Below are positions 8,365 through 34,117 of a stretch of DNA of 64,000 bases, piece by piece. The position numbers and the translations under genes are program-made. The notes beneath the pieces are model-generated. The model was not told the origin of the DNA and did no database searches. It saw only the letters and a program-made list of their open reading frames with translations. Within the stretch, counting starts at the first letter, position 1. Each line of letters begins with the position of its first letter. The DNA is from a virus: IMG/VR virus record IMGVR_UViG_3300032050_000122; one strand, 5' to 3'.

Positions 8365-8387
8365 GCTAAAGGGTGTGGCCACACCCC
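8365..8387 (-). terminator. possible weak terminator hairpin after the kinase gene
   Basis: Perfect palindrome GGGTGTGGCCACACCC followed by only UUU on the minus strand. Confidence 0.3.
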
Positions 8388-8409
8388 GTCCGCGTTCGTC
8401 GGCCTGATT

Positions 8410-8847: not shown

Positions 8848-8934
8848 GGTCTTTCCTTAAAAAGTTAATTGGTCCAGAGCCTTCACGGTAACACACCGTG
8901 GCCTGCCCAGCTTAAGCACTCTGGACCAAAAGGT

Positions 8935-11124: not shown

Positions 11125-11153
11125 GAAACTTTCCTTAAGTAAAGGGACCAGTG

Positions 11154-11221
11154 GGGGCCCGAGGATTTGAACCTCATCTCTGAGTTAAACTCAGGCTCTG
11201 CCAAGTTAAGCTAAAGCCCCA
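11154..11221 (-). tRNA. tRNA with atypical anticodon arm (possible anticodon UUA; or a 5-nt loop)
   Basis: D-arm GCUU-AACUUGGC-AGAGC and T-arm UGAGG-UUCAAAU-CCUCG. Anticodon arm CUGA-GUUUAAC-UCAG gives UUA with a 4-bp stem; the alternative is a 5-bp stem with loop UUUAA. Acceptor has a mismatch and GU pairs. Confidence 0.45.
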
Positions 11222-11374: not shown

Positions 11375-11492
11375 GGGATTAAGTCGAATCAGTATAGCAT
11401 CCTACCATTAGACGACGAAGGCAAGCCCTCGGTGGGATTCGAACCCACATCTCTTCTTTGACATAGAAGTAACCGATTCTAAACGCCACGGA
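11375..11492 (-). ncRNA. candidate YrlA-like ncRNA: box A, then T-arm, closed acceptor-like hairpin and D-arm, then stem and box B
   Basis: Minus strand CCGTGGCGTTTAGAATCGGTTACTTC (11492-11468); T-arm GUGGG-UUCGAAU-CCCAC (11450-11434); hairpin CGAGG-gcuugc-CUUCG; UC; D-arm GUCU-AAUGGU-AGGA (11415-11402); GAUUC pairs with the GAAUC of box A; TTAATCCCGG (11386-11375). Confidence 0.45.
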
Positions 11493-15214: not shown

Positions 15215-15701
15215 AGTCGTCCTCAATTTTGAAGTAGGTCTTGAAAATCGACCCCTTGCTTTCCAAGAGTTCAGCCAGTTCATTTTCCTCGATGCAACGG
15301 CGAATCTCTGACGCCTTCGTCTTGAGATACGCCTCGTAATCCTTGACAAACTCTGGCCGATTCTGCTTTGTCAACTTGAACTTGAACAAATGAAAGAGTT
15401 CGAGAACTGTCGAAGACTTCATTCGTTCGTAGTAAGGGAACAAAGGATTCTCTCTTGGCAAGCTCTGTGCCCAAGGGCCACAGTTGTCAAGGACTTCCAT
15501 ATCGAGCGTTGCACACCCCGTCGATTCCATTCGAAACCTGACCAATGCCGCGTGAACCCGTTTTAAGGACTCACGTTTCTCTTTGATGCAAAGAAGTTCA
15601 AAAAGAACTCGATCGCGATTCTTACCGCAAACTTTGCAAGGTACAGACGTTGACTTGTTGTTGCACTTCTTGCAAATCGGCAGGTCTTTAATCCTTGTCA
15701 T
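15153..15701 (-). CDS. hypothetical protein (N-terminal zinc ribbon)
   Basis: 182 aa; CKKC...CKVC near the N-terminus. Confidence 0.4.
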   Translation of the reverse strand: MTRIKDLPICKKCNNKSTSVPCKVCGKNRDRVLFELLCIKEKRESLKRVHAALVRFRMESTGCATLDMEVLDNCGPWAQSLPRENPLFPYYERMKSSTVLELFHLFKFKLTKQNRPEFVKDYEAYLKTKASEIRRCIEENELAELLESKGSIFKTYFKIEDDYDRHRLSLRQEGEVRIHSES

Positions 15702-16234
15702 GGTTTCCTCGATTTAAGCGTAGATTTACTTACAGCGCAGAATGGTTCTGCACAAAGGGGCCGAATCATTTTTCATTTAGGATTTGGTCACTTAGAGAAG
15801 TGACATCCTTAGCTCTTGTCCTAAGAGCCATGATCCAAAACATCCCGCTTTGTCATCGGACGTTGCTAAGCAACTTCTTCGCAGAGCCAATCAGGTCGGA
15901 TAGTGTGGATGTCGTTACAGCGGGCTTCCGTCTCGCTAATCTTCTCGAAGATAGACGAGCCAGGTATGGCCGCTTTCATCACACTGTTGACCATTTGAAA
16001 TTTTTGGCCAATCTTGAACTCACTGAACGGTTTTTGCAATCGCCTACGAGCCGGTGAATCCATTGATCCTCTCCCCCAGGATGCCTGAGTATTGACTCAT
16101 GGCGATATGCTGGCGAACCAGCTGATCGCGTTCGAGTTCGGACAGCTTGTCGTATTGGCTGCCCATCATGTAGCGGTGCAGCATTTCGATTCGCAAGTCC
16201 AGTTCACGTTTTTCTTCAACGAGCGTTTCCATAA

Positions 16235-17206
16235 TCAGTAGCTCCTGCAAATGGCGTCAAATTCCTCGTCACGCATTCCCATCGACTGTTGGTCGAGAGT
16301 CTTGCAGCGGGCTTGCGATTGCTCAAGGGTCATGTTGCGGAAGATATGGTCACTGTGGACAATATCCCAAATCTCTTGAGCCAGAGCAAACGTATGCCAC
16401 TGGAAGGTCTCACTGATTCGCAGCCGATGTTCGGCAATCCGAATGCTCGGTTTGATGCCACCCGGCTTGCAAACCAGTTGGTCAATCGCGGTGATGAAAT
16501 CGCTGCCGACTTCGTTACCGCACAACCAACCGTAAATTGCAAGCTGAACAGCCCAACTCTCGTTGAGTTCTTCGAGACGTTGGTCACGGTTAATCATCAT
16601 TCCATGATGCATGGCTGGGATGCAGTTCTTGTGTGGGCCAGTGAAATCGGCACCACGAATCCGCAAGTAACCCGGCATCGGACTGATTCCCGACTTGCTA
16701 CAGTAGCCATTCACCTTGAAGTCCAAGGTGACATTGATTCCGCTTTTGTGGTTGAAGGACACGTCCGGTTTACCCAAGAACGTGACCCCTGACACACTCT
16801 TCGTGACGCCTTCTTTTTGTCCATTGACCACGCCACGAACTTCGATTTCAAAACGCGGTGTACCAACCGCTTGTTCCAAATCCGACATTAGGTCAGCCAA
16901 CGCACCTGAGTGCTTGTAGCAATCGAAAGCGTGACGACCGTTGTCCCATGCCCAGTCCCAATGGTGTCGTTCGACCTGAGCTTCAAAGAGCGTTCTCAAA
17001 TCGAAACGAGGGTCATTGCCTTTACCGAACAACGCTTCGTGCATCCAACTCTTCACGTAAGCATCGAAGGCGGACCCGATCGACATTGGCTGAGTTTGCT
17101 TGTCTCGTGTTGGACGATTCTCAGACAGGTATCTGAGGTAATAGTCCTCGGCGTTCTGCTTGAATGCTGCGATGCTCGTCGGGCTGAGGTACTCAAGTTT
17201 CCTCAT
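16235..17206 (-). CDS. putative PD-(D/E)xK-type nuclease
   Basis: 323 aa; candidate catalytic GKPDVSF ... LDFKVNGYC (D...D/ExK). Confidence 0.4.
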   Translation of the reverse strand: MRKLEYLSPTSIAAFKQNAEDYYLRYLSENRPTRDKQTQPMSIGSAFDAYVKSWMHEALFGKGNDPRFDLRTLFEAQVERHHWDWAWDNGRHAFDCYKHSGALADLMSDLEQAVGTPRFEIEVRGVVNGQKEGVTKSVSGVTFLGKPDVSFNHKSGINVTLDFKVNGYCSKSGISPMPGYLRIRGADFTGPHKNCIPAMHHGMMINRDQRLEELNESWAVQLAIYGWLCGNEVGSDFITAIDQLVCKPGGIKPSIRIAEHRLRISETFQWHTFALAQEIWDIVHSDHIFRNMTLEQSQARCKTLDQQSMGMRDEEFDAICRSY

Positions 17207-18978: not shown

Positions 18979-19488
18979 CTACGATTTTCGCCGTCGTGAG
19001 CGGGGCATCTTGCGCACTTGCCGCTTTTTGGTGCCCGGTGCCCGTACACCTTTTCTTTTCTTGCCATAGGTTCCCCAAATCTTCTCGTTGATTTCCTGAT
19101 AGGTTTCAGGTGGGATAGGCTTACCACCCATAACCATTCTTGTGTTCAGAATCCCAAACGGGTGACCCTTGACCCATGACCCACCGTTAAAGACAAGTAG
19201 AGTCGGTGGCCATCCATACGCGATTACAACGGGTTGGCGTGTGGCTCTGTGCAACTCTTCACACAGAAGCATCTCACCATTCGTGGGGTGTGGACCTTTA
19301 ATCTCGATCCAGGTGTTCCACCCAGGGAGATAGAAGTCCGGTAAGTATGAACCAGAAGGTAAAGGGAACCTTCGTGATTCATAGGTCCAAGGAACATCAA
19401 ACATGTTGAACAACATGCAGTATTTGGCCTCAGTCCGAGAACGAAACTGAACGCCACAATACAATGTTGGTTTTGCTTTTATTGGCAT
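18979..19488 (-). CDS. PD-(D/E)xK nuclease-like protein with basic C-terminal tail
   Basis: FRSRTEAKYCMLF ... YLPDFYL ... WIEIKG matches the E...PD...(E/D)xK restriction-endonuclease-fold core. Confidence 0.45.
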   Translation of the reverse strand: MPIKAKPTLYCGVQFRSRTEAKYCMLFNMFDVPWTYESRRFPLPSGSYLPDFYLPGWNTWIEIKGPHPTNGEMLLCEELHRATRQPVVIAYGWPPTLLVFNGGSWVKGHPFGILNTRMVMGGKPIPPETYQEINEKIWGTYGKKRKGVRAPGTKKRQVRKMPRSRRRKS

Positions 19489-19700
19489 GTGTGCAACCCG
19501 CAGTCATCACAGGCTTCATGGTAATCAGAACCGCCACCATAGTCATGGTGCGTCCATGATCGTTTGTTTGGATGGTCACAAACTGATTGCAAGAATGCGA
19601 GTTCTGCTTTCAGAATCTCTGCATCCTTTTTCAAAAGCTTCTCTCGAAGCTTTAGCTCGGCGAGCTTGGTTCGGATATTGTCAATGCTCCAGTCGGACAT
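19479..19700 (-). CDS. hypothetical protein
   Basis: 73 aa ORF; overlaps neighbours in other frames. Confidence 0.3.
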   Translation of the reverse strand: MSDWSIDNIRTKLAELKLREKLLKKDAEILKAELAFLQSVCDHPNKRSWTHHDYGGGSDYHEACDDCGLHTCQ

Positions 19701-19870
19701 TGTGACACCTGGTCCTTAATCTCTTGAGCCGTGGCACCTTGGATGTTGACCCAAGGTCTCTTTGACAGATCAAAGACACTTGACAACTGCAAACAGTTGC
19801 CACCGTGTTCACACTTGTCGCTGTCCCAATGAACAGTCAACTCTTCTCGTTTGTAATCACGCTTTGCCAT
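19652..19870 (-). CDS. divergent 4Fe-4S mono-cluster protein (Fer4_19-like)
   Basis: 72 aa with WDSDKCEHGGNC ... QCPTGAL. Confidence 0.5.
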   Translation of the reverse strand: MAKRDYKREELTVHWDSDKCEHGGNCLQLSSVFDLSKRPWVNIQGATAQEIKDQVSQCPTGALTISEPSSPS

Positions 19871-19944
19871 GATACACCTTGTATGGCGGTCCCCAGGCCA
19901 TTCTCCCTCGCACGGGAGAATTTGTGCGAAGACCCAGGGACCAT

Positions 19945-20015
19945 TAGACTCAGAAGGATTCGAACCCTCTCTAACGGGTCCAACGCCCGTTGTGCTACCG
20001 TTACACTATGAGTCA
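19945..20015 (-). tRNA. tRNA-Gln (anticodon TTG), noncanonical G33
   Basis: D-arm GUGU-AACGGUA-GCAC, anticodon arm ACGGG-CGUUGGA-CCCGU, T-arm GAGGG-UUCGAAU-CCUUC, acceptor GACUCA/UGAGUC with U1-U72 mispair. Confidence 0.5.
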
Positions 20016-20101
20016 ACGTACCCGCTTGGGTGGTCTGCTCTGCGTTCGCAGTCGTTCCACGCACCCTAGACGCTACGGCACTCTGCCAAGCGGGCTTACA
20101 A

Positions 20102-20365
20102 TCACTTCTTGATCAGAGCCAGGATGGCATTGATCACGGTTTGCAAATCCAACTTCTGGCCAGAGAACAGACTGAGAACAAGCGGCAAGAGAACCGCCAA
20201 AATCGTCACCAATCCGACGCCCTGAGCTTGTGCCTGCTTGACGGCTTCACTGAGCTTTGTCTCGGCGTCGCGACCGTACTGGTACGCAACGCTCTTCAAA
20301 AGCATTCGCAGCGTTCCCTGTTGATTTGCACCGACGACACCTGCAAGGTGTTGAGCTTCGATCAT
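20102..20365 (-). CDS. small membrane protein
   Basis: 87 aa with a hydrophobic segment (VGLVTILAVLLPLVLSLF). Confidence 0.4.
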   Translation of the reverse strand: MIEAQHLAGVVGANQQGTLRMLLKSVAYQYGRDAETKLSEAVKQAQAQGVGLVTILAVLLPLVLSLFSGQKLDLQTVINAILALIKK

Positions 20366-21525
20366 TTATCCTTCTCCAAGTAAGTTGCTCCGACACACTT
20401 GAGACACAAGCGTCCCAAGTGAATGTCAGTGCGTTCAACAATCGGTTTGACCACGCAGCCCTCACGATAGTGCTGTGCAATCAAAGATTGACCGTCGCTC
20501 AAGTTCACAACCAGATCGAAGCTGTAATCGTGAACGCCAAGGAATGGCACCCACGGTACATCCGGTGCCGCGTCGCGAGCTTCTTGAGCATTCAGCCAGC
20601 GGCCGTCGTCAAGAATGTCGAACACAGCAATCGAGACTGGCTTGTCTTGAGTGTGGCCGTACTTCAAGGTCTGCACGTTGCCGTAGACTTCACCGTACAA
20701 AATCTTTCCCGGATTATCACGGCACCACTTCTCAATTTCCGGTTCATGGCTCAACGCCGTCCACCACATGTTCCGCGACTTTGTCGGAGAATGTAGGCGA
20801 TCGAAAATCTGTTGACAGCGTTCTTCATCAGGGATGTTTGTGTCCTTGTTCAGAACACGTTCCCGCAACCAATTCATTGTGATATGGTCATAGGTCGGGA
20901 ACTCTTTCTTCCACTCGGTCCGAGAACCACAGTGCATCACACCGTCTTGATAGACGTACCGTGCGTTAGCTCCGTGAATCTTCTCGGTGATCCAAACCTT
21001 CTCGCCAGGAATCAACAAGTGATGATACTTGCGGAAGGCATCGAGATCGTACTTCGGACTGTTGAGGCTTGGAGCCTTGGCAACTTCACCGCCAAGAATC
21101 AAGCCGTTTGCTGCTCGCTGCTCACCTGGCATCGGCGGTTCGTAGTGAGTGACGCCCAACTGCTGAGCAACGTCTTGACCCAAGACGCTACCTTCCGGTG
21201 CCGGAATCATCAGACCAAACGAAACAACACCACGCAGCTTCATAGCCTTGACGCGGTGTGTACCATCAGCCTTGGCTTTTGGCATGAGGAAGTCGAACTC
21301 TTTCCGGTTTGTGTCCACCACCGAATCAGGCGGAAGATACGCACCAAGAGCGACACCTTGCCAGTCTTGGGTTCGGACGATACAGGTGTATCCGCCGAAG
21401 ACTCGAACGATACTGAGCGAATCAGCGTTTGGGTGCTTGGTCAATTCGATTGGCACAATCTCCACCTGATGTGTGCTATTTGACATGGTGCTTACCTCGT
21501 TTGTTGAGTTCCCTGATTTCATCAT
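20362..21525 (-). CDS. ATP-dependent RNA ligase (Rnl2/Rnl5-DraRnl type, KxHG)
   Basis: 387 aa; nucleotidyltransferase motif I ITEKIHGANARYVY (KIHG as in T4 Rnl2) preceded by an N-terminal OB-like domain. Confidence 0.65.
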   Translation of the reverse strand: MMKSGNSTNEVSTMSNSTHQVEIVPIELTKHPNADSLSIVRVFGGYTCIVRTQDWQGVALGAYLPPDSVVDTNRKEFDFLMPKAKADGTHRVKAMKLRGVVSFGLMIPAPEGSVLGQDVAQQLGVTHYEPPMPGEQRAANGLILGGEVAKAPSLNSPKYDLDAFRKYHHLLIPGEKVWITEKIHGANARYVYQDGVMHCGSRTEWKKEFPTYDHITMNWLRERVLNKDTNIPDEERCQQIFDRLHSPTKSRNMWWTALSHEPEIEKWCRDNPGKILYGEVYGNVQTLKYGHTQDKPVSIAVFDILDDGRWLNAQEARDAAPDVPWVPFLGVHDYSFDLVVNLSDGQSLIAQHYREGCVVKPIVERTDIHLGRLCLKCVGATYLEKDK

Positions 21526-21919
21526 GAAGGATATGAAACTTGATTATAGTTTCATCGCTTTGTGGTTTGCCACCTTTGAGTCTAGGAATATCCCAGTAAG
21601 CAAGTAGTATCTCTGCTTGTCTTTTCTTCGTGAAAAGAAAAGGCAGAAGAAGTTTGCAGACATAAATTGCATCATCACTTGACACAAACCATGTAATGTA
21701 ATCGCTACCATTAACATTGTTTGATGTCCTGGGATCAGAGACAGCACCTATTCCTAAAATTTGACGCACTCGCCGGACAGTGGCGAAATGCGTCATGTCG
21801 ATTTTAACCTTAGGTGTAAAACTAGGGTTAATTGAAGTCTTCGATTTGTTGAGTAGCAAATCAACATTTGCTTCGCCATCAACGATACCGGCTGTCCAAC
21901 TTAAAAGACTACTATCCAT
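21476..21919 (-). mobile_element. free-standing LAGLIDADG homing endonuclease
   Basis: 147 aa with WTAGIVDGEANV; overlaps both flanking genes. Confidence 0.65.
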
Positions 21920-24185
21920 GACGAACTACGCATTGTGGACCTTCGCAATAGCGTTCATCAATCCCATCGCTACCACGAAGCTTGGACCAATCGATGGGCT
22001 TGATGCTGAGCAAACGATGCTTGTACTCATCCTCAGTAATCCCTTCTTCGGGCATTTGTGCATACACACCTTTTGGAGTGATTGGCAACATTGCCACGCT
22101 CTTCGTCAAAGGAGCGATACTACTGAGAACAGGTTCAATGTCTTCTTCCTCATGGTTCTCGTCGTACTCGTAGATTTTCACTTCGACGTTCTCAGAGAAC
22201 TCGAACGTGGCTTTGAACTCACGGAACGAGTTAATGCTGGGAAGCTTCTTGTTGAAAACCTCAATACGTTCAGCAAGACTCATGTACTGGTCGAGTACCG
22301 AATCGGCTTGTAAGAACGCTTGGACCGTTGGCCACAGATGATATTTCAGATTCCACTTGGGTCTGAAATTCAACGTGTTGCTCACAGCGTTGTCCGACCA
22401 TTCTCGTTGTAACAAGCACAACATGCTTGCCTGTTCCCACAAGCTGACTCGTTTGAAACCAGTCTTGTGTACCGGGAACTCAAATACAACCGTGCCCTTC
22501 GGATCAAAGATTTCCGGTTCGTTCGGCACACCTGCATCAACCAGGATTTGGTAGACCGGTGAGTTACGCGACAACCGGACTCGACGAATCATGAACTCGA
22601 AATTCGGACGATTGAACCCTGCATTCTGTCCAGGGAGATTCGGTGTCGTGCCGCCGGGCTTGATGGTCGTGTGCCGGATCGGATCAGGAATGCCTGCTTC
22701 CGAATTGCACCAGTGCGACACATTACGAGTCTTCTCGTAACCCTGACGCAGGTTCTTAATCAGCTTGTGAGTGCCGATCTTGTCCGACCATTCAGCGACG
22801 TTGATGATGCTGGCACCAATACGACGATTCCGGTACATAACCGAATTCGTTTCAGGCCGATGCGTCGGCAACAGTGTTACCGTTGTGGCATACACAGTTG
22901 CATACTCAACAGCCTTGAGCCATGCTTCGTCACTGTGACATCGCATGGGAACCGTTTCAACGAGTGTGCAAAGCTCTTTATCTTCGAGAGGTTGTTCGCC
23001 ACAAGGATTAAAAGCAATCGCTCTGTCCAACCTCAAGCCATCCATCGACTTACCAATACGACCGAATGGCAAGTTAACCTTATTGATGTATCCAGGCTCG
23101 CCATTGAGAATCACCCTTTTTGCGATTTCACCAAGACGCTCGAAGTCTTCACTGGTTTCCAGGAACACCGAATTGTTCGACATGTAGCCCCAGTCCTTAC
23201 GGTAGGGATACTTGTCGTACTGTTTCAGGTCCATCACTTCGTCGATTGTTCCTGCACAGAGTTCGGCTGATCGTCGGACATTGCCCGCCACCACGCAACA
23301 GCCAGTACAATTGGCGAGGTCAGTCTTAAGAAGAACCGAGTCATACCATTCCTCACAAGCGTACTGTTCCATCAGCATTTCAATGCGTTGATGAAACTTG
23401 ATCAGAGGAGCCGGACCAGAACAGACGCCACCGAATCCACGAATCGGGGCACCCTCTTCACGAATCTCGTCGTAGATGAATCTCGGTTTCGGGGAACCTT
23501 TTTCCCGAAAACTTGTAATCAGGGCTTTGGTGGAATCGCACCAACCTTCACGACTGTCAGGGATGACATAGTCGTAAGTTCCCTTCGGATTGTAGACCGT
23601 CAATTCATCTTGACGTTCTGGTAGGAATCCTACACCGACGCCGCACATGAGCATGTCCATCATCCAATGGATATCATTCTCAAGTGTCTCACCGATGATT
23701 GTGAATCCACAATTTTGCAGAGCAGCCGAACCACGTTCGTAAACGAAGTCCGAACCCATCGCCCAAAGTCCGCGACCGGGAGGTAGCCATTCCATCTTGT
23801 ACATCGACACCGCGAAGTGGCGTGCGTACACCTGCCAGAATGATTCGTCCCACGGAATATGGTTCTTAATGTACCAATCCTTGCGAATCGAAAACGTTCC
23901 TTGAGTCGCACGGATGATTGTATCGGGCCACCACTCTTGACAAGTCTCTAAAGGGTCTACAAAATCATGTACAAGAATTTGTCCCTTTTGACATGAACCA
24001 CAATACTCTCTCCCAGTCTTGAGATCAAGTTTGATTGACGGTTGCCGGCAATTTTTGCAGATGTTTCGCGAGTATGTCCTGAAATACAGGAACTCTCCGA
24101 AACCATTGTAGCCAAAGTCTGGAGTCATACTCCTAATCTCTTCAAGCGTAGACTCGACTAACTTGAATCGTTCTTTTACAAACAC
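21912..24185 (-). CDS. nrdJ: class II (B12-dependent) ribonucleotide reductase, NrdJ-like
   Basis: 757 aa with the active-site motif NPCGEQ and large RNR-like size. Confidence 0.7.
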   Translation of the reverse strand: MFVKERFKLVESTLEEIRSMTPDFGYNGFGEFLYFRTYSRNICKNCRQPSIKLDLKTGREYCGSCQKGQILVHDFVDPLETCQEWWPDTIIRATQGTFSIRKDWYIKNHIPWDESFWQVYARHFAVSMYKMEWLPPGRGLWAMGSDFVYERGSAALQNCGFTIIGETLENDIHWMMDMLMCGVGVGFLPERQDELTVYNPKGTYDYVIPDSREGWCDSTKALITSFREKGSPKPRFIYDEIREEGAPIRGFGGVCSGPAPLIKFHQRIEMLMEQYACEEWYDSVLLKTDLANCTGCCVVAGNVRRSAELCAGTIDEVMDLKQYDKYPYRKDWGYMSNNSVFLETSEDFERLGEIAKRVILNGEPGYINKVNLPFGRIGKSMDGLRLDRAIAFNPCGEQPLEDKELCTLVETVPMRCHSDEAWLKAVEYATVYATTVTLLPTHRPETNSVMYRNRRIGASIINVAEWSDKIGTHKLIKNLRQGYEKTRNVSHWCNSEAGIPDPIRHTTIKPGGTTPNLPGQNAGFNRPNFEFMIRRVRLSRNSPVYQILVDAGVPNEPEIFDPKGTVVFEFPVHKTGFKRVSLWEQASMLCLLQREWSDNAVSNTLNFRPKWNLKYHLWPTVQAFLQADSVLDQYMSLAERIEVFNKKLPSINSFREFKATFEFSENVEVKIYEYDENHEEEDIEPVLSSIAPLTKSVAMLPITPKGVYAQMPEEGITEDEYKHRLLSIKPIDWSKLRGSDGIDERYCEGPQCVVRHG

Positions 24186-24194
24186 AGATGACCC

Positions 24195-24671
24195 CTAAAT
24201 GTGTGACCAATTCTTACGACTGAGTATTAAAGAAATCGTGATGTAGTTCACATTGAACATTCTTCCTAGAGCGGCTTTAGACATAGTTCCTTCTAGCTCA
24301 CGAATCTTCAAAACTTCTATCTCAGTCAATTTCGCTTGACTATGGTTCTCACCACGATTATCTTTGCGGCCAGTTTGAAAAGCATGAATTATATTCTCAG
24401 AAACAGTTCCAAGAAATAAATGTTCTGGCTTTACACAAATCGGGTTTTCGCACTCATGACAAACTTGCAACTCTCCCGGCTCTTTATGGTAATGAAACCA
24501 ATAAGAGAATCGAGAGGCTATGTAATTGACACGATCAATTGTTATTGTGCCATAGCCGTCTCGATTCGGTCTACCTAACCAAAGCCAACAATCTTCTGTC
24601 TTACTGACATTGGCCCAATACGTCACAATCGCTTTTGGCGTTATGAGGGGCATTGGCCTGTAGTAACCCAT
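24195..24671 (-). mobile_element. HNH homing endonuclease
   Basis: 158 aa; CWLWLG...DGYG...HECENPICVKPEHLFLGT, typical of the phage HNH_3 family. Confidence 0.65.
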
Positions 24672-27418: not shown

Positions 27419-30040
27419 TCATTTGTCGGCCCATGACTTAAGCCCAATCATCCAGTCCATCTTAATCAAAGGTACTTTTGGACGGATAGATTCAACTGAT
27501 TCATCAACGATACGTTTAACCTCGGCGGAATACTGCGGGTCGGTAACACACATGATCTCGTCGTGAATGTTCATACCGATTACACGCCATGGATTCACAC
27601 CATGAGGTTGAATGTTCCAGATGTTGCGTTGCAACTTCTTAGTCGCCTGTGCCCCGCTGCTTTGAATCTGGTGGTTCGCAGCAGCACGCATTGAACTCGC
27701 TTGGATGCTGAAAGCAGCACCGAACAGTGCTGACCTTGTTGCACCCTCAGCCATTTGCATTCGCGGATTCTTCAAGCTTCTTACGAGCCTGATCTTGATG
27801 TCTTTCCAAGCTCTTGGAGGTTTCTCTCCGAGCATGAAGAGAGCCTTACAGATTTTATTCTCAAGAGTGAAGTACCTTGGGAATCCGAAGAGGGACTCGA
27901 TTTTGTCAGCAGGCTCGTGCCATTCGACGCGGCTACCTATTCCACCTGGTTGTCGCATGGAACAGAACTGATCGACAATTCTTTGTCGAGCAACGCCAAC
28001 CTGTTTGAACTGTCGTCCGAATTCTGTGAAGGCTTTGTTTGCGGTTTCAAGATCGACGCCCAATCGGTCTTGAAGGGTTGGTCCTTCTCCACCATAAAAC
28101 ATAGCGAAGACAGCGGACTTTGCCTTGGTGTACAGGTCTTTTCCATCGTTCATACCCTTGGTGGCCTTAAGCGATTTGTATGTATGTTCGGGATACACAT
28201 GGATACCGAACAACGCATGAATCGCTTTACCATCTTTGTCGCAAGATGGACAATAGACCTCATTGGTCGGACTTACCGCTTTGTTGAGCTTGCACTTCTT
28301 GCAGACCTTGTCCGAGTTGCGTTCGCGTTTCGTACAGGCCGGGCAGTAGATGTCACCTGATTCGATGACCATTTGCCCGTCGCAGTATTCACACGTTAGC
28401 AGAGCTTTTCGTAAGTCTGGATCGTTGTAGCAAGCCTCAGCAAGTGTGACTTCAAATCCTGCAAAGTCTCCTCCATCAAGAGAAAATCCTTCCCACGCCA
28501 ATGGAAAGCAGCTGCGTACTTCCTTTGTCTTGTTAATCCCTTGGGCGTTGAGACCGTCTGTTCCTGACATACGAGAGGACAAGGCCCCAATGACTTTGAA
28601 ACTTGCGTGAAATCTCCCAGCAAGAATAAGCTTGTCGTAGATTTCAATTTCTTTGGTGGCCTTACGAGCGTCGAGGACGTTCTTGGCTCTGATTGCTGCC
28701 GGGTGCGGGACTTTACCTTTTGAGCCACAATGTTCACACTCCACATTTGAAGGTGCGATAACCGTTTTGATGATTAACGATTTCTCACCTGTCAATTCGC
28801 CAACCAATTCGGAAACTTGTTCGCAAGCTTCCTCGACTTCGATTTCATTGGCCGCTGACGCATTACACTTGGGGCAAGGCATTTCTTGCTTTGCCATTGC
28901 TTCAAGAAGAACTTTCTTGGTGCTGCCCTTGAGTACAAGTTTGCTGGCAGGATCAAGTAGTTCGTTGATGTAATGCTTTACTTCGCGTGGACCAGTTGGA
29001 ATGACTTTCTTTTTCTCAATAGCACTCTTCTTAAGGGCTTTGAGCTTGTCGATGTCGATTCGAAATCCCTTCCAACGAACGGCAGCCACCATACAAGCCA
29101 ACTCGGAATCATCATCGCCTTGAGCAGGACGACCAAAGTGTTTCCAAAGTCCGCGAGTATAAATCACATCATCGGTTGCATACTCCCTTGCCAAAGGATT
29201 ATATGCCCAATGATTGATATGGTGTTTGATTACTTGTGGCCATGCTTCTCTTGCGAGTTTTTTCTTATTTGTTTTGCTACCAAACTTCTTCGCGAACGGT
29301 ACAGCTTTTGCGAACGGAGCATAGCCGTACTCGGCAGGCCACCAGCGACGATCGACTTCGACGTCGGTGAAGCGTAGAACTTTCTCAGGTGGAATACCTA
29401 AAGCGTCTACCGCTAATGCTTTCAATGCACTACTCGGTGCGAACTTCAAAACGACATCTTTGAAATCGGGGTTGACGACTTTCTCTTCATCCACGATATC
29501 GTAGACTTGCCATTTCTTACCTTTTTCTTTCTTGCGAGCAAAGTAAATGTCCTTTAATTCGATTCGTCTTTCCAACTCAGCAGCAAGCTGCCAAGCAAGT
29601 GCTGTAGGTACTCTACGAATTCGAATGTCGCCGCGATCCATTGTAGACTGGTATTCAGTTTTTCTGGCCCACAGCATTAGATCGCAAGCAGAGACAGGCT
29701 TCAAACAAGGACCATCACGACCCATAGGTTCGAGATCGGCAAGCCTATCAATGATGTCTTCAGGGTAATCGTCATGGTCATGCCACAGTGAGAAGATTGT
29801 ATAAATCTTACACATGTGGAAAAAATCAAATGCTAGATTGAATCCACAAATTCCTCCAGGGTGGTTCACAATCATTTCAATCAATGCGAGTGTCTTGCTG
29901 ATAGGCTCTTTCCAAATTGAGTACAATTCAATTGGACCGTCGCCAATGGCATATTGAAGAAGCACTCCCATACCATGGAGACCACAAGTTTCAAAATCTA
30001 GAAAGATTGGGTCATGCGTATTTCCAGTAGTATCCACCAC
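27419..30040 (-). CDS. family A DNA polymerase with 3'-5' exonuclease and zinc-finger insertions
   Basis: 873 aa; Exo I FLDFETCGL, Pol A motif B KAKSAVFAMFYGGEG, motif C NIHDEIMCV; inserted CxxC...CxxC ribbons. Confidence 0.8.
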   Translation of the reverse strand: MVDTTGNTHDPIFLDFETCGLHGMGVLLQYAIGDGPIELYSIWKEPISKTLALIEMIVNHPGGICGFNLAFDFFHMCKIYTIFSLWHDHDDYPEDIIDRLADLEPMGRDGPCLKPVSACDLMLWARKTEYQSTMDRGDIRIRRVPTALAWQLAAELERRIELKDIYFARKKEKGKKWQVYDIVDEEKVVNPDFKDVVLKFAPSSALKALAVDALGIPPEKVLRFTDVEVDRRWWPAEYGYAPFAKAVPFAKKFGSKTNKKKLAREAWPQVIKHHINHWAYNPLAREYATDDVIYTRGLWKHFGRPAQGDDDSELACMVAAVRWKGFRIDIDKLKALKKSAIEKKKVIPTGPREVKHYINELLDPASKLVLKGSTKKVLLEAMAKQEMPCPKCNASAANEIEVEEACEQVSELVGELTGEKSLIIKTVIAPSNVECEHCGSKGKVPHPAAIRAKNVLDARKATKEIEIYDKLILAGRFHASFKVIGALSSRMSGTDGLNAQGINKTKEVRSCFPLAWEGFSLDGGDFAGFEVTLAEACYNDPDLRKALLTCEYCDGQMVIESGDIYCPACTKRERNSDKVCKKCKLNKAVSPTNEVYCPSCDKDGKAIHALFGIHVYPEHTYKSLKATKGMNDGKDLYTKAKSAVFAMFYGGEGPTLQDRLGVDLETANKAFTEFGRQFKQVGVARQRIVDQFCSMRQPGGIGSRVEWHEPADKIESLFGFPRYFTLENKICKALFMLGEKPPRAWKDIKIRLVRSLKNPRMQMAEGATRSALFGAAFSIQASSMRAAANHQIQSSGAQATKKLQRNIWNIQPHGVNPWRVIGMNIHDEIMCVTDPQYSAEVKRIVDESVESIRPKVPLIKMDWMIGLKSWADK

Positions 30041-31755: not shown

Positions 31756-32198
31756 TAAGTGCCTCGTTTGTTCAATGCCTGAATCTCTTCACAGAGAATG
31801 TCTCGCAAAGCCTGATCCCTTAGAGGCACAGGATTGAATCTATCGTAGTCCTTAAAAGTATCAAGAAATTCAAATAGTATTTTCGCCTGCTCGATTTTAA
31901 TAATCAAATAAGGTGAAATACGATTCAAGAAATTTCTTAATTCTTCTCGTTGAACATCCCATTGCCAAGATTCTTTTCTATTTCCTCTTAAATCTTTCCT
32001 GGATCGAGGAGTGCCAATTCCAGTAATAACTACCAAGTAGTCCATTAACTTGTAGTTAGTATTGCTGATTGCCACAAATGGTATATAAGGAATTGCATGG
32101 GTTACTTTTTGTGGCTTCTGCCTACAGATTGTGATAGTACCTTCACCATCAATCAATCCAGCAATATAAGCAGCTTGGTTGTCTGTGATGTTTTTCAT
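31755..32198 (-). mobile_element. free-standing LAGLIDADG homing endonuclease
   Basis: 147 aa with AYIAGLIDGEGT. Confidence 0.65.
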
Positions 32199-34117
32199 TG
32201 ATCCCAGTTGATTTGGTTATTCAACTCTCCCATGCTGAGGGCTTGAAGCTTCTTCTTCTTCTTCAAGTTGTTAAGAACCAATTCATCACTTGGTAAATGG
32301 ATCAAATCAATGATGGTAGCCCCTCTGTTCACATCCATTCCCATACGATGTATTCGGTCTTCTGACTGCTGTCTGGATTCAGCATTGAAATCATTCGAGT
32401 AATATACGATTGTTGGGCTAGCCGTTAAGGTCAAACCCATACCAGCCGCACTAGGCTGACCAATGAATACTAATCGACGAATTTCCTTATCATTTTGAAA
32501 TTTCAACAACAGTGCTTTAGCATCAAGTCCTTCAAAAGAACTTGCCCAACCACGGCCATCAACACGAATCCATTCCCACTGATTCTTCTTCGCTATTTCA
32601 ACACAGCGATCAACAGAACCAGTGAACCCCGCATAGACAACGAGACGCCCAACGTCGTCGTGTTCGTCAAACAGGTCCGAAAGGACTTGTTCCTTCGCAG
32701 ATTCGACTTGCGTTGCAACGCGAGTATACGAAGTAACTTCGCCCGATCCGTCGCAATGCGGACACGCTTTCTCACCAGTTTGAAACGTGCCTTCCGGGAT
32801 TTCAAGCCCTTCATATTGTCTCCGCATCATTTCGTCATATTGGTCGTCCGGACCAACGTAGATGAAATCGATCGCAGTACGCTCGCCCTTGCAGAGCGGA
32901 CACGTTTCCGTGCCGATCGCTTGTTCGTCATACTGAAAGCCATCGGAGAGTTCTCTCAACAGAGTGAGAGTTTTGATTCCACTGTTGCCTTGAGCCACAA
33001 GCAGCTTCGCGGCATTGACGATGTTCTGACTCGGCTTGATACGAATTTCCCGGTATTGCTTTTCGGGAAGATCGAGGCAATCTTTTTTCAATTTCACAAG
33101 AACCAGGCCATTCATTCTCTTATAGAGATAAGCGACTTCATTCTTGCTCGGCTGGTACGGGTGAGCATCTTCCATGATTTCATCATGTTGATTTTCATAC
33201 TTGCCGCAGGTCTTGCATTTCTTCTCGTCATCAAGCCAAGATTCCAACGCGGAGTACGTACCCGCGACGCCTTCCGCTTGTTTCATAATCGCAAGACGCG
33301 ATCTGAACTTCTCAGGGTTGCCCTCTTTCAAGAAGCCAGGACAAGCGATGTTACATAATGACCACCAATCCACCGGACTCTTGGGAGCCGGCGAACCAGA
33401 CATCAGAATGACATAGCCCTGTTCGCCCCAGTGTTCGCGGATGTAATCGGCCATCCACTTGGCAGCTTGTGTACGCGCCGCGGTATGCGTTTTGCATCGT
33501 GATGCTTCATCGAACACAATGCCTTGCGGCGGTTCGGCACCTTGCGGCCAATTCTTGCAAAGTTCGCGGAACGCTTCGTAGGTGTGGAATCGAGGACGAA
33601 CCTTGGAGTTCCATTTGTCGAACTCAAGCTGCACCGAGTACATGGCGGACTTCGGTGCAATCCAGTACCAACTCTTGGCATTGGATTGTTCCATGGCACT
33701 GATTGTCGAGAGCGTCTTGCCAGTACCCATCTCGGCGGCGATGACGCAGTAGTGACGAATCAGTTCAAACGCCGCAATGTCAATTTGATGTTGCCGGAGT
33801 TCAGGACGCCAAACAATATTGCTTGTGTCGAGAGGCTTGTCGAACCAGACATAAGGATCGCCGCCAGCAAGAAAGTCAAGCTGGAAACGATTATGTTGGG
33901 AGTCACTAAGACTCCAAGCCTTAATCGGCGGGTCTTTGAACCCATGCCAAGTTGTACCCTCAAGAGCTTTGAGTTCTTCGGTTATCTTTTTGTTAAAAGC
34001 ATACGAAGCCCAAAGCCGGTCACGCTTCTTCGTGAACGTGACCGGGTATCGATAATCCCCAATTTGGATTTTAAGGACTTTTGGAACACCTTCTTGGAAT
34101 GTCAAATCAGTGAACAT
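32195..34117 (-). CDS. SF2 (SNF2/DEAH-like) helicase with zinc-ribbon insertions
   Basis: 640 aa; Walker A AAEMGTGKT, motif II VFDEAS, motif VI QSEDRIHRMG; CxxC ribbons. Confidence 0.65.
   Translation of the reverse strand: MFTDLTFQEGVPKVLKIQIGDYRYPVTFTKKRDRLWASYAFNKKITEELKALEGTTWHGFKDPPIKAWSLSDSQHNRFQLDFLAGGDPYVWFDKPLDTSNIVWRPELRQHQIDIAAFELIRHYCVIAAEMGTGKTLSTISAMEQSNAKSWYWIAPKSAMYSVQLEFDKWNSKVRPRFHTYEAFRELCKNWPQGAEPPQGIVFDEASRCKTHTAARTQAAKWMADYIREHWGEQGYVILMSGSPAPKSPVDWWSLCNIACPGFLKEGNPEKFRSRLAIMKQAEGVAGTYSALESWLDDEKKCKTCGKYENQHDEIMEDAHPYQPSKNEVAYLYKRMNGLVLVKLKKDCLDLPEKQYREIRIKPSQNIVNAAKLLVAQGNSGIKTLTLLRELSDGFQYDEQAIGTETCPLCKGERTAIDFIYVGPDDQYDEMMRRQYEGLEIPEGTFQTGEKACPHCDGSGEVTSYTRVATQVESAKEQVLSDLFDEHDDVGRLVVYAGFTGSVDRCVEIAKKNQWEWIRVDGRGWASSFEGLDAKALLLKFQNDKEIRRLVFIGQPSAAGMGLTLTASPTIVYYSNDFNAESRQQSEDRIHRMGMDVNRGATIIDLIHLPSDELVLNNLKKKKKLQALSMGELNNQINWDQ

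Follow-up and report, generated by a model that had tools for sequence, protein, structure and literature searches.

The minus strand of a viral genome, IMGVR_UViG_3300032050_000122, encodes an ORF of 387 aa at 20362..21525 (ORF list) that had been predicted to be an Rnl2/DraRnl-type RNA ligase. Together with a Pnk-like kinase, a HAD phosphatase and a DHH phosphoesterase, it was proposed to form a distributed set resembling the T4 Pnkp-Rnl pathway, which counters anticodon nucleases. The locus thus raises the question to which ligase family the protein belongs, and whether it repairs RNA together with these enzymes. We analysed a stretch of 64,000 nucleotides (the window); the phage is known from metagenomes only, and about 47 kb of its genome of about 110 kb lie outside the window.

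The ORF, its motif EKIHGANARYVY (encoded at 20985..20950) and RNA-ligase profile matches were all found. The gene most likely starts at ATG 21486, which gives a protein of 374 aa. This start is preferred because a GAGGT Shine-Dalgarno lies 7 nt upstream of it, with none before 21525, and because a database protein that is 100% identical to the ligase and found on 19 contigs (P0001) begins there. The features discussed below are listed in Table 1.

Table 1. Features of the window. Residue numbers refer to the 374-aa ligase unless stated otherwise.
Feature	Position	Strand	Evidence or remark
Separate ATP-dependent DNA ligase, KLDGMR motif I	3015..4094	-	PF01068 and PF14743; PHROG 114 6.6e-42
DHH/DHHA1 phosphoesterase	4333..5154	-	PHROG 4771 6e-66; weak DHHA1 match
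Ro60 ortholog (TROVE and vWA), probable start 7053	5617..7170	-	PF05731 5.7e-14; PHROG 850 1.1e-38
YrlA-like Y RNA	8143..8284	-	126 nt downstream of kinase, upstream of tRNA-His and TROVE
Candidate 5'-OH polynucleotide kinase, stand-alone AAA_33 P-loop kinase, 145 aa	8410..8847	-	PF13671 6.7e-12
tRNA-Gln(UUG)	19944..20016	-	86 nt downstream of 87-aa ORF, same strand as ligase
87-aa ORF, function unknown	20102..20365	-	ATGA-coupled to ligase stop
Rnl5-family ATP-dependent RNA ligase gene, 374 aa	20362..21486	-	mechanical ORF runs to 21525
Nucleotidyltransferase (adenylyltransferase) domain of ligase	20365..21069	-	PF09414
Lys169 codon, predicted AMP-accepting nucleophile	20982..20980	-	Lys182 in 387-aa ORF numbering
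N-terminal OB-fold domain of ligase, Rnl5 signature, approximately aa 1-120	21127..21486	-	PF21189 covers aa 16-95
Homing-endonuclease-like ORF, 147 aa, between class II RNR and ligase	21476..21919	-	PHROG 5046 3.7e-14
Class II ribonucleotide reductase (RNR)	21912..24185	same as ligase	immediately upstream, overlapping ORFs
PolA	27419..30040	same as ligase	replication block
SNF2 helicase	32195..34117	same as ligase	replication block
tRNA island (Arg, Thr, Val, Gly, Ala, Asn, Pro)	43661..46491	+	interleaved with small genes including HAD
Candidate RNA 3'-phosphatase, stand-alone HAD_SAK_2, motif I DIDGV	44332..44751	+	PF18143 3e-18; PHROG 1818

Family and predicted fold of the ligase

Profile, motif and fold evidence show that the ligase is a member of the Rnl5 family (DraRnl/NgrRnl). 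In profile searches, it matched PHROG 968 'RNA ligase' (E 1.9e-30) and TIGR02306 RNA_lig_DRB0094 (E 6.9e-31) over its full length and far above chance level, and many of its close homologs carry the JGI label 'RNA ligase (TIGR02306 family)'. Its TIGR02306 score of 107.4 bits is below the equivalog cutoff of 151.15, which indicates a divergent subfamily with an insertion that is still inside the wider Rnl5 clade. The Pfam matches to the OB domain PF21189 (5.7e-10) and to PF09414 RNA_ligase (3.8e-18) both exceed the gathering score, and this architecture is common to at least 3424 homologs.

By domain order, Rnl5 enzymes consist of an N-terminal OB-like module and a nucleotidyltransferase (NTase) domain, with no C-terminal appendage (PMC1807946, PMC4408790); biochemically, their hallmark is that they need ATP and Mn2+ and seal duplex nicks with 3'-OH/5'-PO4 ends only if the 3'-OH strand is RNA. 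The domain order was found here, with PF21189 followed by PF09414, motif IV E342 located 32 aa from the C-terminus (residue 374) and the C-terminus 11 aa past motif V. In contrast, enzymes of the Rnl2 type (T4 Rnl2, kinetoplastid RELs) have no N-terminal OB domain, and their NTase domain is followed by a C-terminal nick-recognition domain. An OB domain at the N-terminus and the end shortly after motif V thus rule out an Rnl2 proper. Of the label 'Rnl2/DraRnl-type', the second half stands; the K-x-H-G motif I on which it was based is common to Rnl2 and DraRnl.

Motif I of the ligase reads T167-E168-K169-I-H171-G172. Lys169 aligns to NgrRnl Lys170 and is the same in 36/36 homologs, as is the glycine, whereas position 171 is H in 21 of the 36, as in DraRnl, and D in 14, as in NgrRnl. 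With motifs Ia (S188-R189), III (G265-E266), IIIa (F289-D290), IV (E342-G343-C-V-V) and V (K363), all six motifs of the DraRnl list (PMC1807946) are present and invariant or nearly so among these homologs. The residues K169, E266, F289-D290, E342-G343 and K363 are invariant in all 36 and correspond to essential residues of DraRnl (PMC1807946). In the OB domain, which aligns to NgrRnl residues 20-131, D54 is also invariant and aligns with NgrRnl Asp53, a ligand of the non-catalytic metal. By homology to DraRnl and NgrRnl, the protein is thus predicted to be an active ATP-dependent polynucleotide ligase.

An AF2 model of the ligase (pLDDT 89.8) was searched against the PDB with Foldseek. The top 13 matches were all NgrRnl (E 2e-20 to 8e-19, TM 0.64-0.75, about 390 aligned columns), so that the predicted similarity extends over both domains; T4 Rnl2 followed at E 2.5e-8 and TM 0.37. 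Similarly, the profile of the ligase family matched NgrRnl at E 2.7e-22 over both domains and T4 Rnl2 at about 4e-4, in the NTase part only.

It is very improbable that the protein is instead a second DNA ligase, an mRNA capping enzyme, an inactive relic or an Rnl2 proper. Motifs I-V are common to all covalent nucleotidyltransferases, the NTase domain of T4 Rnl2 also falls under PF09414, and Foldseek gives weak matches to DNA ligases; these matches, however, have E-values of about 1e-3 or above. DNA ligases and capping enzymes are recognised by a PF01068-type adenylation domain in which motif I reads KxDG and by an OB domain at the C-terminus, and the Pfam search of the ligase returned no PF01068, PF14743 or capping-enzyme match. 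Furthermore, the matches to NgrRnl surpass that to T4 Rnl2 by about 12 orders of magnitude and those to DNA ligases by about 17, the N-terminal OB domain is the signature of Rnl5 and nothing is C-terminal of motif V, and the catalytic residues are all intact and invariant across homologs of 45-78% identity. The original prediction had named a placement among capping enzymes or DNA ligases as evidence against it; profile and fold searches place the ligase outside both. The DNA ligase from which it had been distinguished is indeed a separate gene with PF01068 and PF14743.

Relatives of the ligase occur in 175 cultured or deposited phage records, and phage homologs of Rnl5 have been noted before (PMC1807946, PMC4408790). 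The best deposited match, in an uncultured phage of 595 kb, has only 38.8% identity, and the Pakpunavirus matches have about 27%; all close relatives (45-100% identity) are metagenomic. A search for near-identical DNA to positions 19000-23000 among deposited phages gave no match.

Gene neighbourhood and candidate end-healing enzymes

The ligase gene is embedded in a block of replication and nucleotide-metabolism genes, where it is packed tightly with the class II RNR, and the synteny of this block is kept in relatives. The homing-endonuclease-like ORF, which overlaps the start of the ligase by 11 nt, is absent from the equivalent position in two relatives (L005 and L104). Directly downstream of the ligase, an ORF of 84-88 aa is found in L001, L005 and L104; the 87-aa ORF of the window has no family match in Pfam or PHROG. 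A scan for promoters and terminators around the ligase revealed no excess over shuffles.

A conserved Rnl5 operon was rejected, as no neighbour recurs across 42 phage loci. When 1242 ORFs from the 42 viral loci were clustered by BLAST, no family occurred in more than seven loci, and those loci were near-identical. Likewise, no kinase or phosphatase recurred when 147 de-duplicated neighbours, up to 4 kb away, were scanned with Pfam; one RlaP gene is found among the Rnl5 neighbours. The Rnl5 genes of Tunturi_3 and Pakpunavirus stand amid helicase and primase genes, and in a sister phage, a gene for a PTP-SAK phosphatase has been inserted 1.3 kb downstream of Rnl5.

The first candidate for end healing, the stand-alone kinase, has the P-loop GLPGSGKST and an aspartate (D31) that aligns to T4 Pnk D35, whereas an equivalent of R38 is not evident. 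It matches PHROG 2071 (6.5e-27), PHROG 505 'polynucleotide kinase' (1.4e-9) and PHROG 8238; only the last of these hints at a kinase-ligase fusion family. The match to T4 Pnk itself is weak (E 0.018, compared with 0.01 for PSTK), and the distant relatives are KTI12- and N4BP2L-like. All listed homologs are short AAA_33-type proteins (about 125-245 aa), none with an RNA-ligase or phosphatase domain, and a search of the viral contig collection found no close relatives. The closest relative (L009), which keeps the ligase, lacks the kinase at the syntenic site, and L100 has it there; the kinase is a variable accessory gene. Its family co-occurs with Rnl5 in Pakpunavirus genomes. In an rV5-like phage, the kinase family and a phosphoesterase adjoin an RNA ligase annotated as Rnl1.

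The second candidate, the HAD gene, sits between tRNA-Thr and tRNA-Val; the window contains 13 tRNAs. As a HAD_SAK_2 protein with a DIDGV motif I, it is a candidate linear 3'-phosphatase. Pfam names this family for Swiss-Army-Knife RNA-repair proteins. The 'Swiss Army Knife' domain names reportedly go back to Burroughs & Aravind 2016. All 120 listed homologs (110-239 aa) carry PF18143 alone, without fusions. The HAD gene is kept in two relatives that also encode the Rnl5 ligase; among cultured phages, relatives of HAD_SAK_2 and Rnl5 scarcely overlap. In Vibrio phage X1, relatives of both kinase and HAD stand with an RNA ligase of the Rnl1 type (PF09511). The sequence features agree in part with the healing activities that had been proposed for both genes, but the ligases that accompany their families elsewhere are of the Rnl1 type.

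The third proposed partner, the DHH phosphoesterase, exists, but its membership in a Pnkp-Rnl pathway is unsupported: the gene tracks TROVE instead, which it adjoins in L009, L010, L012 and L034.

Beside the kinase, we observed a Ro60/TROVE gene and a YrlA-like Y RNA that the original prediction had missed. The features by which Ro60-YrlA modules are recognised (PMC4201824) are present, namely a TROVE protein and, within 4 kb on the same strand, an RNA in which a tRNA-like domain is combined with a conserved terminal helix; the vWA match of the Ro60 protein in Pfam is weak. The RNA has a tRNA-like domain with T-arm and D-arm that is closed by a long terminal stem, and it is conserved in L009, L010 and L100. 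It scores 36 bits against Rfam RF02553 (E 3e-6 to 4.4e-5), below the gathering score of 69 because one helix of the model is missing. The single-sequence MFE fold of the region is no better than shuffles (z -0.39), and support for the RNA thus comes from the Rfam match and from covariation: 26/28 pairs have double changes, and 90.7% are paired compared with 70% in shuffles. Among 47 phage loci related to the TROVE gene, about half have full-length same-strand matches to a model of this RNA (R1) upstream of TROVE. Partial matches (model positions 42-96) were discarded, as they are junctions of adjacent tRNAs. No RNA ligase was found among the TROVE neighbours in the 47 loci. In two genomes, the kinase is physically joined to the block of Y RNA, TROVE and DHH.

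Taken together, the idea of a distributed Pnkp-Rnl-like set holds only in part, in that a Pnk-like kinase, a SAK-type HAD and a ligase reside in one genome; a direct link of the first two to Rnl5 was not found. The three genes are 12-24 kb apart and dispersed over 36 kb. In related genomes, ligase and HAD co-occur in three and ligase and kinase in two. The ligase is constant across the clade and the repair kit is variable, with the kinase in the window and one sister phage, the HAD-SAK in the window and two relatives, and a PTP-SAK in another sister. Among 30 window ORFs searched with Pfam, no 2H, RlaP, CCA-adding enzyme, RtcB or Rnl1 was found, and the Rnl5 ligase is the sole RNA ligase seen in the 64-kb window of the genome of about 110 kb.

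Possible substrates of the ligase

The analysis establishes the family of the ligase, its predicted fold and intact catalytic motifs, and the context and distribution of its gene; its substrate, a role in RNA repair and any cooperation with the kinase and the HAD are inferred. We estimate a probability of about 50% that the ligase seals broken structured RNA, where needed after end healing by these two enzymes. By homology with DraRnl and NgrRnl, Lys169 would attack ATP to form a ligase-AMP, the AMP would be transferred to a 5'-phosphate, and a 3'-OH/5'-PO4 nick would be sealed in a duplex that has RNA as its 3'-OH strand. The targets may be nicks in tRNA or rRNA helices from host or competitor ribonucleases. 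On 5'-P/3'-OH nicks the ligase could act directly, whereas 5'-OH and 3'-phosphate ends would be healed by the Pnk-like kinase and the SAK-type HAD before sealing. This reading is favoured by the presence of both candidate healing enzymes in the same genome, with 13 tRNAs and a Ro60/Y-RNA module. Also for it speak the RNA ligases that accompany kinase and HAD relatives in Vibrio phage X1 and the kinase family in the rV5-like phage, the shared occurrence of the kinase family and Rnl5 in Pakpunavirus, the PTP-SAK gene behind Rnl5 in the sister phage, the RlaP gene among Rnl5 neighbours, the RNA-repair sets of large phages (PMC7824862) and the resealing of a Toprim stem nick without healing (PMC12445682). 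Against it, neither operon nor fusion ties the ligase to the healing enzymes, the kinase is an indel, both families elsewhere pair with Rnl1-type ligases, HAD_SAK_2 relatives and Rnl5 scarcely overlap among cultured phages, the tested window ORFs include no 2H, RlaP, CCA-adding enzyme or RtcB, the ligase sits in a replication block and scores below the TIGR02306 cutoff, and the only knockout phenotype of an Rnl5 enzyme is in DNA repair (PMC4408790, PMC5397189). Another ligase is possible in the roughly 47 kb beyond the window. The more specific proposal of a T4-like set against anticodon nucleases is weakened, as Rnl5 enzymes seal duplex nicks and not anticodon-loop breaks (PMC5397189).

It is possible, though we hold it for less probable than RNA repair, that the same enzyme acts on DNA and seals nicks with a ribonucleotide-ended 3'-OH in replication or repair. 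The substrates might be remnants of RNA primers or 'ribo-patches' left by a polymerase when dNTPs are scarce, which the ordinary DNA ligase of this phage would handle poorly. At the 3'-OH end, DraRnl requires at least two ribonucleotides, and cells without it are slower to reassemble their genome after irradiation (PMC5397189). The same-strand block with PolA, SNF2 helicase and class II RNR, its conserved synteny and the helicase and primase genes beside Rnl5 in Tunturi_3 and Pakpunavirus point in the same direction. However, replication genes commonly stand side by side with anti-defence and RNA genes in the early and middle regions of phages, so the position of the ligase is weak evidence. 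Furthermore, a tRNA gene follows the ligase operon, a PTP-SAK gene is inserted beside the ligase in the sister phage, the genome is rich in RNA functions (tRNAs, Ro60/Y RNA, SAK-HAD, Pnk-like kinase), and a ribonucleotide-incorporating polymerase was not identified.

Rather unlikely, in our view, is that the ligase repairs RNA independently of the kinase and HAD, acting only on 5'-P/3'-OH nicks from metal-dependent (Toprim, PIN) RNases. Kinase and HAD would then serve a ligase outside the window, the Ro60/Y-RNA module or nucleotide metabolism. The closest relative, which lacks the kinase yet keeps the ligase, the attachment of the kinase to the Y RNA-TROVE-DHH block, the pairing of kinase and HAD relatives with Rnl1 and the sparse overlap of HAD relatives with Rnl5 would all fit; a single stem nick made by a Toprim nuclease is indeed resealed by nick-sealing ligases without healing (PMC12445682). 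On the other hand, the window shows no second RNA ligase, kinase relatives and Rnl5 occur together across Pakpunavirus, and the PTP-SAK phosphatase of the sister phage is inserted just behind the Rnl5 gene.

A more speculative extension, which we regard as improbable, is an integrated RNA-guided platform in which Ro60/YrlA captures or senses nicked tRNAs and hands them to kinase, SAK phosphatase and Rnl5. The tRNA-like domain of YrlA might then mimic the targets of host tRNases. If true, Rnl5 would gain its first physiological RNA substrate, and phage Ro60 a role in repair rather than decay.

Rnl5 ligases occur widely and their structures are well understood, whereas what they act on physiologically is unknown (PMC4408790, PMC5397189). 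The sole knockout study implicates DNA repair, and its authors did not decide whether the targets that Rnl2/Rnl5 enzymes repair are DNA, RNA or both (PMC5397189). As Rnl5 is constant in this clade while the healing genes are swapped, and Ro60/Y RNA and many tRNAs are encoded as well, the clade offers a convenient natural comparison for this question. In practice, the protein is also a candidate reagent for sealing nicks as an RNA ligase. Beyond this, it is a further example of a theme known from the comparative genomics of large phages.

Comparison with known systems

The ligase has the same OB and NTase layout as DraRnl (DR_B0094) and NgrRnl (PDB 5COT), with nothing after motif V. In motif I, it shares T-E-K-x-H-G with DraRnl (TEKLHG), and motifs Ia (SR versus SK), III, IIIa (FD), IV (EGxVV) and V (K) are shared as well. 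Both domains of the predicted fold superpose on NgrRnl; sequence identity to it is only about 21-22%. In contrast to both enzymes, the phage ligase is longer by roughly 35-40 residues, mostly helical, in the stretch from motif Ia to motif III, and K169 and E266 are 97 residues apart compared with 57 in NgrRnl and 65 in DraRnl. Where NgrRnl has Lys121, the phage family has an invariant His. Unlike DraRnl and NgrRnl, the ligase is encoded by a phage, inside a replication block. Phage homologs of the same architecture (PHROG 968) include those of Aeromonas phage 44RR2.8t, of Caulobacter, Mycobacterium and Sinorhizobium phages and the Pakpunavirus 'RNA ligase'; these, too, have no fixed partner and are found in early or replication regions.

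The Ro60 module resembles the Ro60 (Rsr)-YrlA modules of bacteria and phages (PMC4201824; Thermus phage phiLo, PMC12135203), with the same TROVE and vWA protein and an upstream tRNA-like RNA. The motif near the 5' end is GGCGUAG here and GGCGAAG in L010, compared with the published GNCGAA(N)G. Known modules are flanked by RtcB/RtcA, whereas this one is flanked by the Pnk-like kinase and the DHH phosphoesterase.

Like T4 with Pnkp and Rnl1 (and Rnl2), the window has a candidate P-loop 5'-kinase, a candidate DxDxV HAD, an ATP-dependent RNA ligase and tRNAs. T4 Pnkp is one protein, while kinase and phosphatase are separate small proteins here, as the original prediction correctly stated; such a split has already been described for large phages (PMC7824862). 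In addition, a SAK-family HAD stands in place of the Pnkp HAD, and the duplex-nick sealer Rnl5 in place of Rnl1, a specialist for the anticodon loop. The kinase is dispensable in the nearest relative, and a cyclic phosphodiesterase was not found among the tested window ORFs.

A further parallel is provided by Iyer et al. 2021 (PMC7824862), who described large phages with tRNA arrays, ATP-dependent RNA ligases, polynucleotide kinases and stand-alone Swiss-army-knife HADs, a subset of which also carry ROT/TROVE with a tRNA-like RNA partner, and who described this combination as phage RNA repair. Rnl5 homologs, stand-alone SAK-HADs, kinases, TROVE and tRNA arrays of phages are an already published theme, which makes the ligase a solid but ordinary find. 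The genome studied here has about 110 kb and is not that of a jumbo phage, its ligase is an Rnl5 and not one of the Rnl1, Rnl2 or RtcB types that Iyer et al. emphasise, and neither RlaP nor 2H is seen in the window.

Family and motifs of the ligase

The ligase ORF has 387 codons and encodes EKIHGANARYVY. Translation most likely begins with the ATG at 21486, which gives a protein of 374 aa (the numbering used here), because a GAGGT Shine-Dalgarno sequence lies 7 nt upstream, nothing comparable precedes 21525, and a 100%-identical database protein, present on 19 metagenomic contigs, begins at the matching residue. Judged by its sequence and predicted fold, this protein is an intact member of Rnl5, the RNA ligase family of DraRnl (Deinococcus radiodurans) and NgrRnl (Naegleria gruberi). 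In Pfam, the PHA02142 OB-fold domain (5.7e-10) precedes PF09414 RNA_ligase (3.8e-18), both above the gathering score, and the protein aligns end to end with PHROG 968 'RNA ligase' (1.9e-30) and with NCBIfam TIGR02306 'RNA_lig_DRB0094' (6.9e-31; at 107 bits, short of its equivalog cutoff, 151). The profile A1, made from 36 ligase homologs, matched the Naegleria gruberi RNA ligase over both domains (E 2.7e-22) and T4 Rnl2 at about 4e-4, with only the C-terminal half covered. When an AlphaFold2 model (pLDDT 89.8, pTM 0.83) was searched against the PDB with Foldseek, the 13 best hits were NgrRnl entries aligned over the full length (E about 1e-20, TM 0.64–0.75), followed by T4 Rnl2 (2.5e-8, TM 0.37).

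Raymond and Shuman described the essential motifs of DraRnl as I TEKLHG, Ia SK, III FGEVV, IIIa FD, IV EGVVV and V SVK (PMC1807946), and every one of them is found in the ligase. K169, G172, S188, E266, F289, D290, E342, G343 and K363 are invariant across the 36 homologs. Position 171 is His in 21 and Asp in 14 of these, as in DraRnl and NgrRnl, respectively. The 32 residues from motif IV to the C-terminus are as described for the DraRnl clade (PMC1807946). The invariant D54 of the OB domain aligns with NgrRnl Asp53, a ligand of the non-catalytic metal, whereas at the position of NgrRnl Lys121 the homologs invariantly have His. Compared to NgrRnl and DraRnl, the subfamily has an extra ~35-40 residues, mostly helical, between motifs Ia and III, so that K169 and E266 are 97 residues apart compared to 57 in NgrRnl and 65 in DraRnl. 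The insertion (aa ~200-258) is kept across homologs, with N239, W241 and W242 nearly invariant, and is probably the reason for the sub-threshold TIGR02306 score.

The original prediction of an RNA ligase with a K-x-H-G motif was thus borne out and can be sharpened to Rnl5 by profiles, motifs and fold; it was also right that this form of motif I is common to Rnl2 and DraRnl, a comparison already made in PMC1807946. Rnl2 proper is ruled out by the weak and partial T4 Rnl2 match and the absence of an Rnl2-type C-domain. A DNA ligase is essentially excluded, as DNA ligase structures appear in Foldseek only near 1e-3, and so is a non-ligase protein. With the profile and fold searches placing the protein in Rnl5 and all catalytic motifs intact, we also reject a capping enzyme or a decayed gene.

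Positions of the ligase motifs (residues) and of the genes and elements discussed (nucleotides)
Feature	Position	Strand	Remark
Ligase motif I	T167-E-K169-I-H171-G172
Ligase motif Ia	S188-R189
Ligase motif III	G265-E266
Ligase motif IIIa	F289-D290
Ligase motif IV	E342-G343-C-V-V
Ligase motif V	K363
Ligase ORF	20362..21525	-
Class II ribonucleotide reductase (RNR)	21912..24185	same as ligase	heads block
Homing-endonuclease-like ORF, 147 aa	21476..21919	-	between RNR and ligase; PHROG 5046
tRNA-Gln	19944..20016	same as ligase	follows block
Homing-endonuclease-like ORF, 147 aa	31755..32198	-	AGLIDGEG; between ParB and SNF2 helicase genes; resembles 21476..21919 ORF
Homing-endonuclease-like ORF	24195..24671	-
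Homing-endonuclease-like ORF	42034..42543	+
DHH/DHHA1 phosphoesterase	4333..5154	-
Ro60/TROVE gene	5617..7170	-
Y RNA	8143..8284	-
Kinase	8410..8847	-
HAD	44332..44751	+

Surroundings and distribution of the ligase gene

The ligase gene shares 11 nt with the end of the upstream 147-aa ORF, and at its own end an ATGA joins its stop to the start codon of an 87-aa ORF; promoter and terminator motifs showed no enrichment over shuffles within 19400..24400. The ligase therefore lies in a tight same-strand block that begins with the class II RNR and has tRNA-Gln after it. The PHROG of the upstream ORF is labelled HNH, yet the sequence has a LAGLIDADG-like AGIVDGEA motif; the ORF is missing from two related loci (L005, and L104 of the sister phage JAWVHB010000685.1). 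The RNR and the methylases are flanked by HNH_3-type ORFs. Elsewhere, at ~16044..16250 (-), equivalent to 15255..15443 of the related locus L001, a 62-68-aa gene with a precomputed Pfam match to PF21825 'Sequestin' is kept in three relatives and is preceded by a PD-(D/E)XK-like 323-aa gene.

At least 3424 database proteins match the ligase, and those listed share its two-domain architecture. Among deposited phages, 175 records encode a relative, of which 154 are Pseudomonas phages, mostly Pakpunavirus, with about 27% identity; the best deposited phage match is from a 595-kb uncultured phage (38.8%). In the viral collection, the nearest relative of this uncultivated phage is a contig of 111,835 bp whose ligase is 94% identical; the window matches roughly 33-97 kb of this contig. 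Thus, the phage genome is near 110 kb.

Candidate partners of the ligase

The original prediction combined the ligase with the kinase, the HAD and the DHH phosphoesterase into a distributed repair set resembling T4 Pnkp-Rnl. The kinase is an AAA_33 P-loop protein that matches PHROG 2071 (6.5e-27), PHROG 505 'polynucleotide kinase' (1.4e-9) and PHROG 8238, whose profile spans 737 positions and carries the annotation 'RNA ligase'. Weak alignments were obtained with T4 Pnk (E 0.018) and seryl-tRNA(Sec) kinase (0.01); they preserve the P-loop and place an Asp opposite T4 D35. Distant relatives are KTI12-domain carriers or vertebrate N4BP2L1 proteins, and no close relatives were found in the viral collection. 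The HAD has the motif I DIDGV and is a member of PF18143 (3e-18; 'HAD domain in Swiss Army Knife RNA repair proteins'), which is the sole domain in all 120 listed homologs. Its gene lies in a tRNA island: tRNA-Thr ends 12 nt before the HAD ATG and tRNA-Val overlaps the HAD stop. Directly upstream of tRNA-Thr and HAD, 43844..44209 (+) encodes a SpoVG-domain protein with an inserted zinc ribbon, a pairing with HAD that is kept in the relative L105. We also observed a 171-aa protein (43139..43654, +) with PF18909, the N-terminal domain of dATP/dGTP diphosphohydrolase (7e-20); it adjoins an RNase_T-type exonuclease and two DNA methylases, which may point to editing of the nucleotide pool or to modified bases in the DNA.

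The kinase and HAD families adjoin RNA ligases in other phages. The T5-like Vibrio phage vB_ValS_X1 carries an RNA ligase, HAD_SAK_2, an AAA_33 kinase of the same family and a metallophosphoesterase on one strand in about 7.4 kb, of which all but the metallophosphoesterase fit within 5.5 kb. MiataMamis, an rV5-like phage, has a kinase gene that overlaps one for a metallophosphoesterase and divergently adjoins an RNA ligase. These family-level neighbourhoods support end-healing roles for the kinase and HAD families. However, neither ligase is Rnl5: that of X1 is Rnl1-type (PF09511), and that of MiataMamis bears the name given to T4 Rnl1, 'RNA ligase and tail fiber protein attachment catalyst'.

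In the window, the ligase, kinase and HAD genes are dispersed, 12-24 kb apart. The kinase is moreover an indel, with window 8335..8868 corresponding to about 100 bp in the closest relative (L009, 4562..4665), and is present in the sister phage (L100) at the same site, adjoining the Y RNA. Kinase family and Rnl5 co-occur in Pakpunavirus; in OQ319937, for example, they lie at 32.3 kb and 81.5 kb, respectively. The deposited phages with HAD_SAK_2 relatives (Vibrio, T4-like and Cronobacter-type phages) hardly overlap with those that have Rnl5 (Pakpunavirus, Caulobacter phages and others). No neighbour family recurred within +/-10 kb of 42 phage Rnl5 loci except among near-identical phages. When 147 de-duplicated neighbours lying no more than 4 kb from Rnl5 were scanned with Pfam, no kinase or phosphatase recurred; the genes seen were for replication, nucleotide metabolism and homing endonucleases, with one RlaP and two AAA_28. 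Neither cyclic phosphodiesterase, RlaP, CCA-adding enzyme, RtcB nor Rnl1 was found among 30 scanned window ORFs. Direct links of the kinase and HAD to the Rnl5 ligase are thus weak. Two observations speak for a link. The ligase occurs together with HAD in three related genomes and with the kinase in two. The sister phage also has a 148-aa PTP-SAK phosphatase (L104 5411..5857; PF22784, HCX5R motif HCLRGKDRT), inserted 1.3 kb downstream of its Rnl5 gene on the same strand and absent from the window, where the junction is 19482/19488. Overall, Rnl5 stays constant while the RNA-end-modifying enzymes that go with it change. For the DHH phosphoesterase (PHROG 4771, 6e-66), we saw no connection to the ligase.

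That set also missed a module beside the kinase, consisting of a Ro60 ortholog (TROVE plus vWA; PHROG 850, 1.1e-38) and a YrlA-like Y RNA. The Rfam YrlA model matches 8162..8265 with 36 bits, less than its gathering score (69), and an E from 3e-6 to 4.4e-5, upstream of TROVE on the same strand and between the kinase and tRNA-His. The RNA contains a T-arm GGGUUCGAAUCCC, a variable hairpin, a D-arm UAGCUCAGUGGGUAGAGC and a long closing terminal stem. This segment is conserved in relatives, whereas the surrounding non-coding DNA is not, and compensatory changes are already seen among three sequences. A covariance model built from these three gave full-length same-strand matches immediately upstream of TROVE in about half of 47 phage loci, as well as in L100, compared to two full-length matches in about 780 kb of control loci, one of them 2 kb upstream of a TROVE gene. 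In the model-fitted alignment, 90.7% of cells pair, compared to 70% in shuffles and at most 48% with partners slid; double changes occur in 26 of 28 pairs, including all 7 of the non-tRNA terminal stem. The DHH gene adjoins TROVE in four loci of differing relatedness (L009, L010, L012 and L034; 26-82% identity), and we speculate that, like PNPase in bacteria, its product might be a nuclease partner of the Ro60/Y-RNA particle.

Several further tRNA-like elements were observed. A weak one separating the Y RNA from tRNA-His (8066..8135, -; 17 bits) might be a degenerate tRNA or another RNA resembling the Y RNA. Others lie at 11153..11220 (-) and 11424..11486 (-); among the weak elements are one Rfam tRNA match (34.7 bits) not called by ARAGORN and one sub-threshold match (25 bits). 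In the compared locus L078, a full-length Y-RNA model match (8176..8295, 29 bits) lies 1.7 kb upstream of an Rnl5 gene, and tblastn detected no TROVE there; the match might have arisen by chance, or be a tRNA-like element or a Y RNA whose partner is divergent.

Possible roles of the ligase

The ligase has all parts for the three-step reaction of lysine adenylylation, AMP transfer to the 5'-phosphate and 3'-OH attack. The Rnl5 family seals duplex nicks whose 3'-OH strand is RNA (PMC4408790, PMC5397189), and by analogy we infer such nicks as its substrate. We prefer RNA repair as its role, with a probability of about 0.5: the ligase would act directly on 5'-P/3'-OH ends of nicked structured RNAs, and ends that require healing would first be processed by the accessory kinase and SAK phosphatases. 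When the P2-OLD H332A mutant nicks a stem once, both T4 Rnl1 and T4 Rnl2 reseal it (PMC12445682), so such damage is ligatable without healing. The main rival is a role in DNA, in which the ligase seals ribonucleotide-terminated nicks in replication or repair. The gene sits in a block with RNR, PolA and helicase genes, here and in other phages, and the only genetic data for the family point to DNA (PMC5397189); we nevertheless regard this role as the less probable one. RNA repair by a ligase uncoupled from the kinase and HAD seems unlikely; these two may then work with an Rnl1 or RtcB ligase encoded beyond the window, or with the Ro60 module. The pathway originally proposed is thus partly supported, through the families of the kinase and HAD.

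The finding is valuable mainly because it offers a natural setting in which to study the function of Rnl5 ligases in phages. The ligase finding falls within a published theme: DraRnl homologs are known from Aeromonas phage 44RR2.8t and from Caulobacter, Mycobacterium and Sinorhizobium phages (PMC1807946, PMC4408790), and a synthesis on large phages describes exactly such a gene combination as RNA repair (PMC7824862). Phage Ro60/YrlA pairs are likewise published, from 22 phages (PMC4201824) and from Thermus phage phiLo (PMC12135203), and the module of the window thus belongs to a known kind. Its 5' motif, GGCGUAG in the window and GGCGAAG in the related locus L010, is near the published Rsr-site motif GNCGAA(N)G (PMC4201824).
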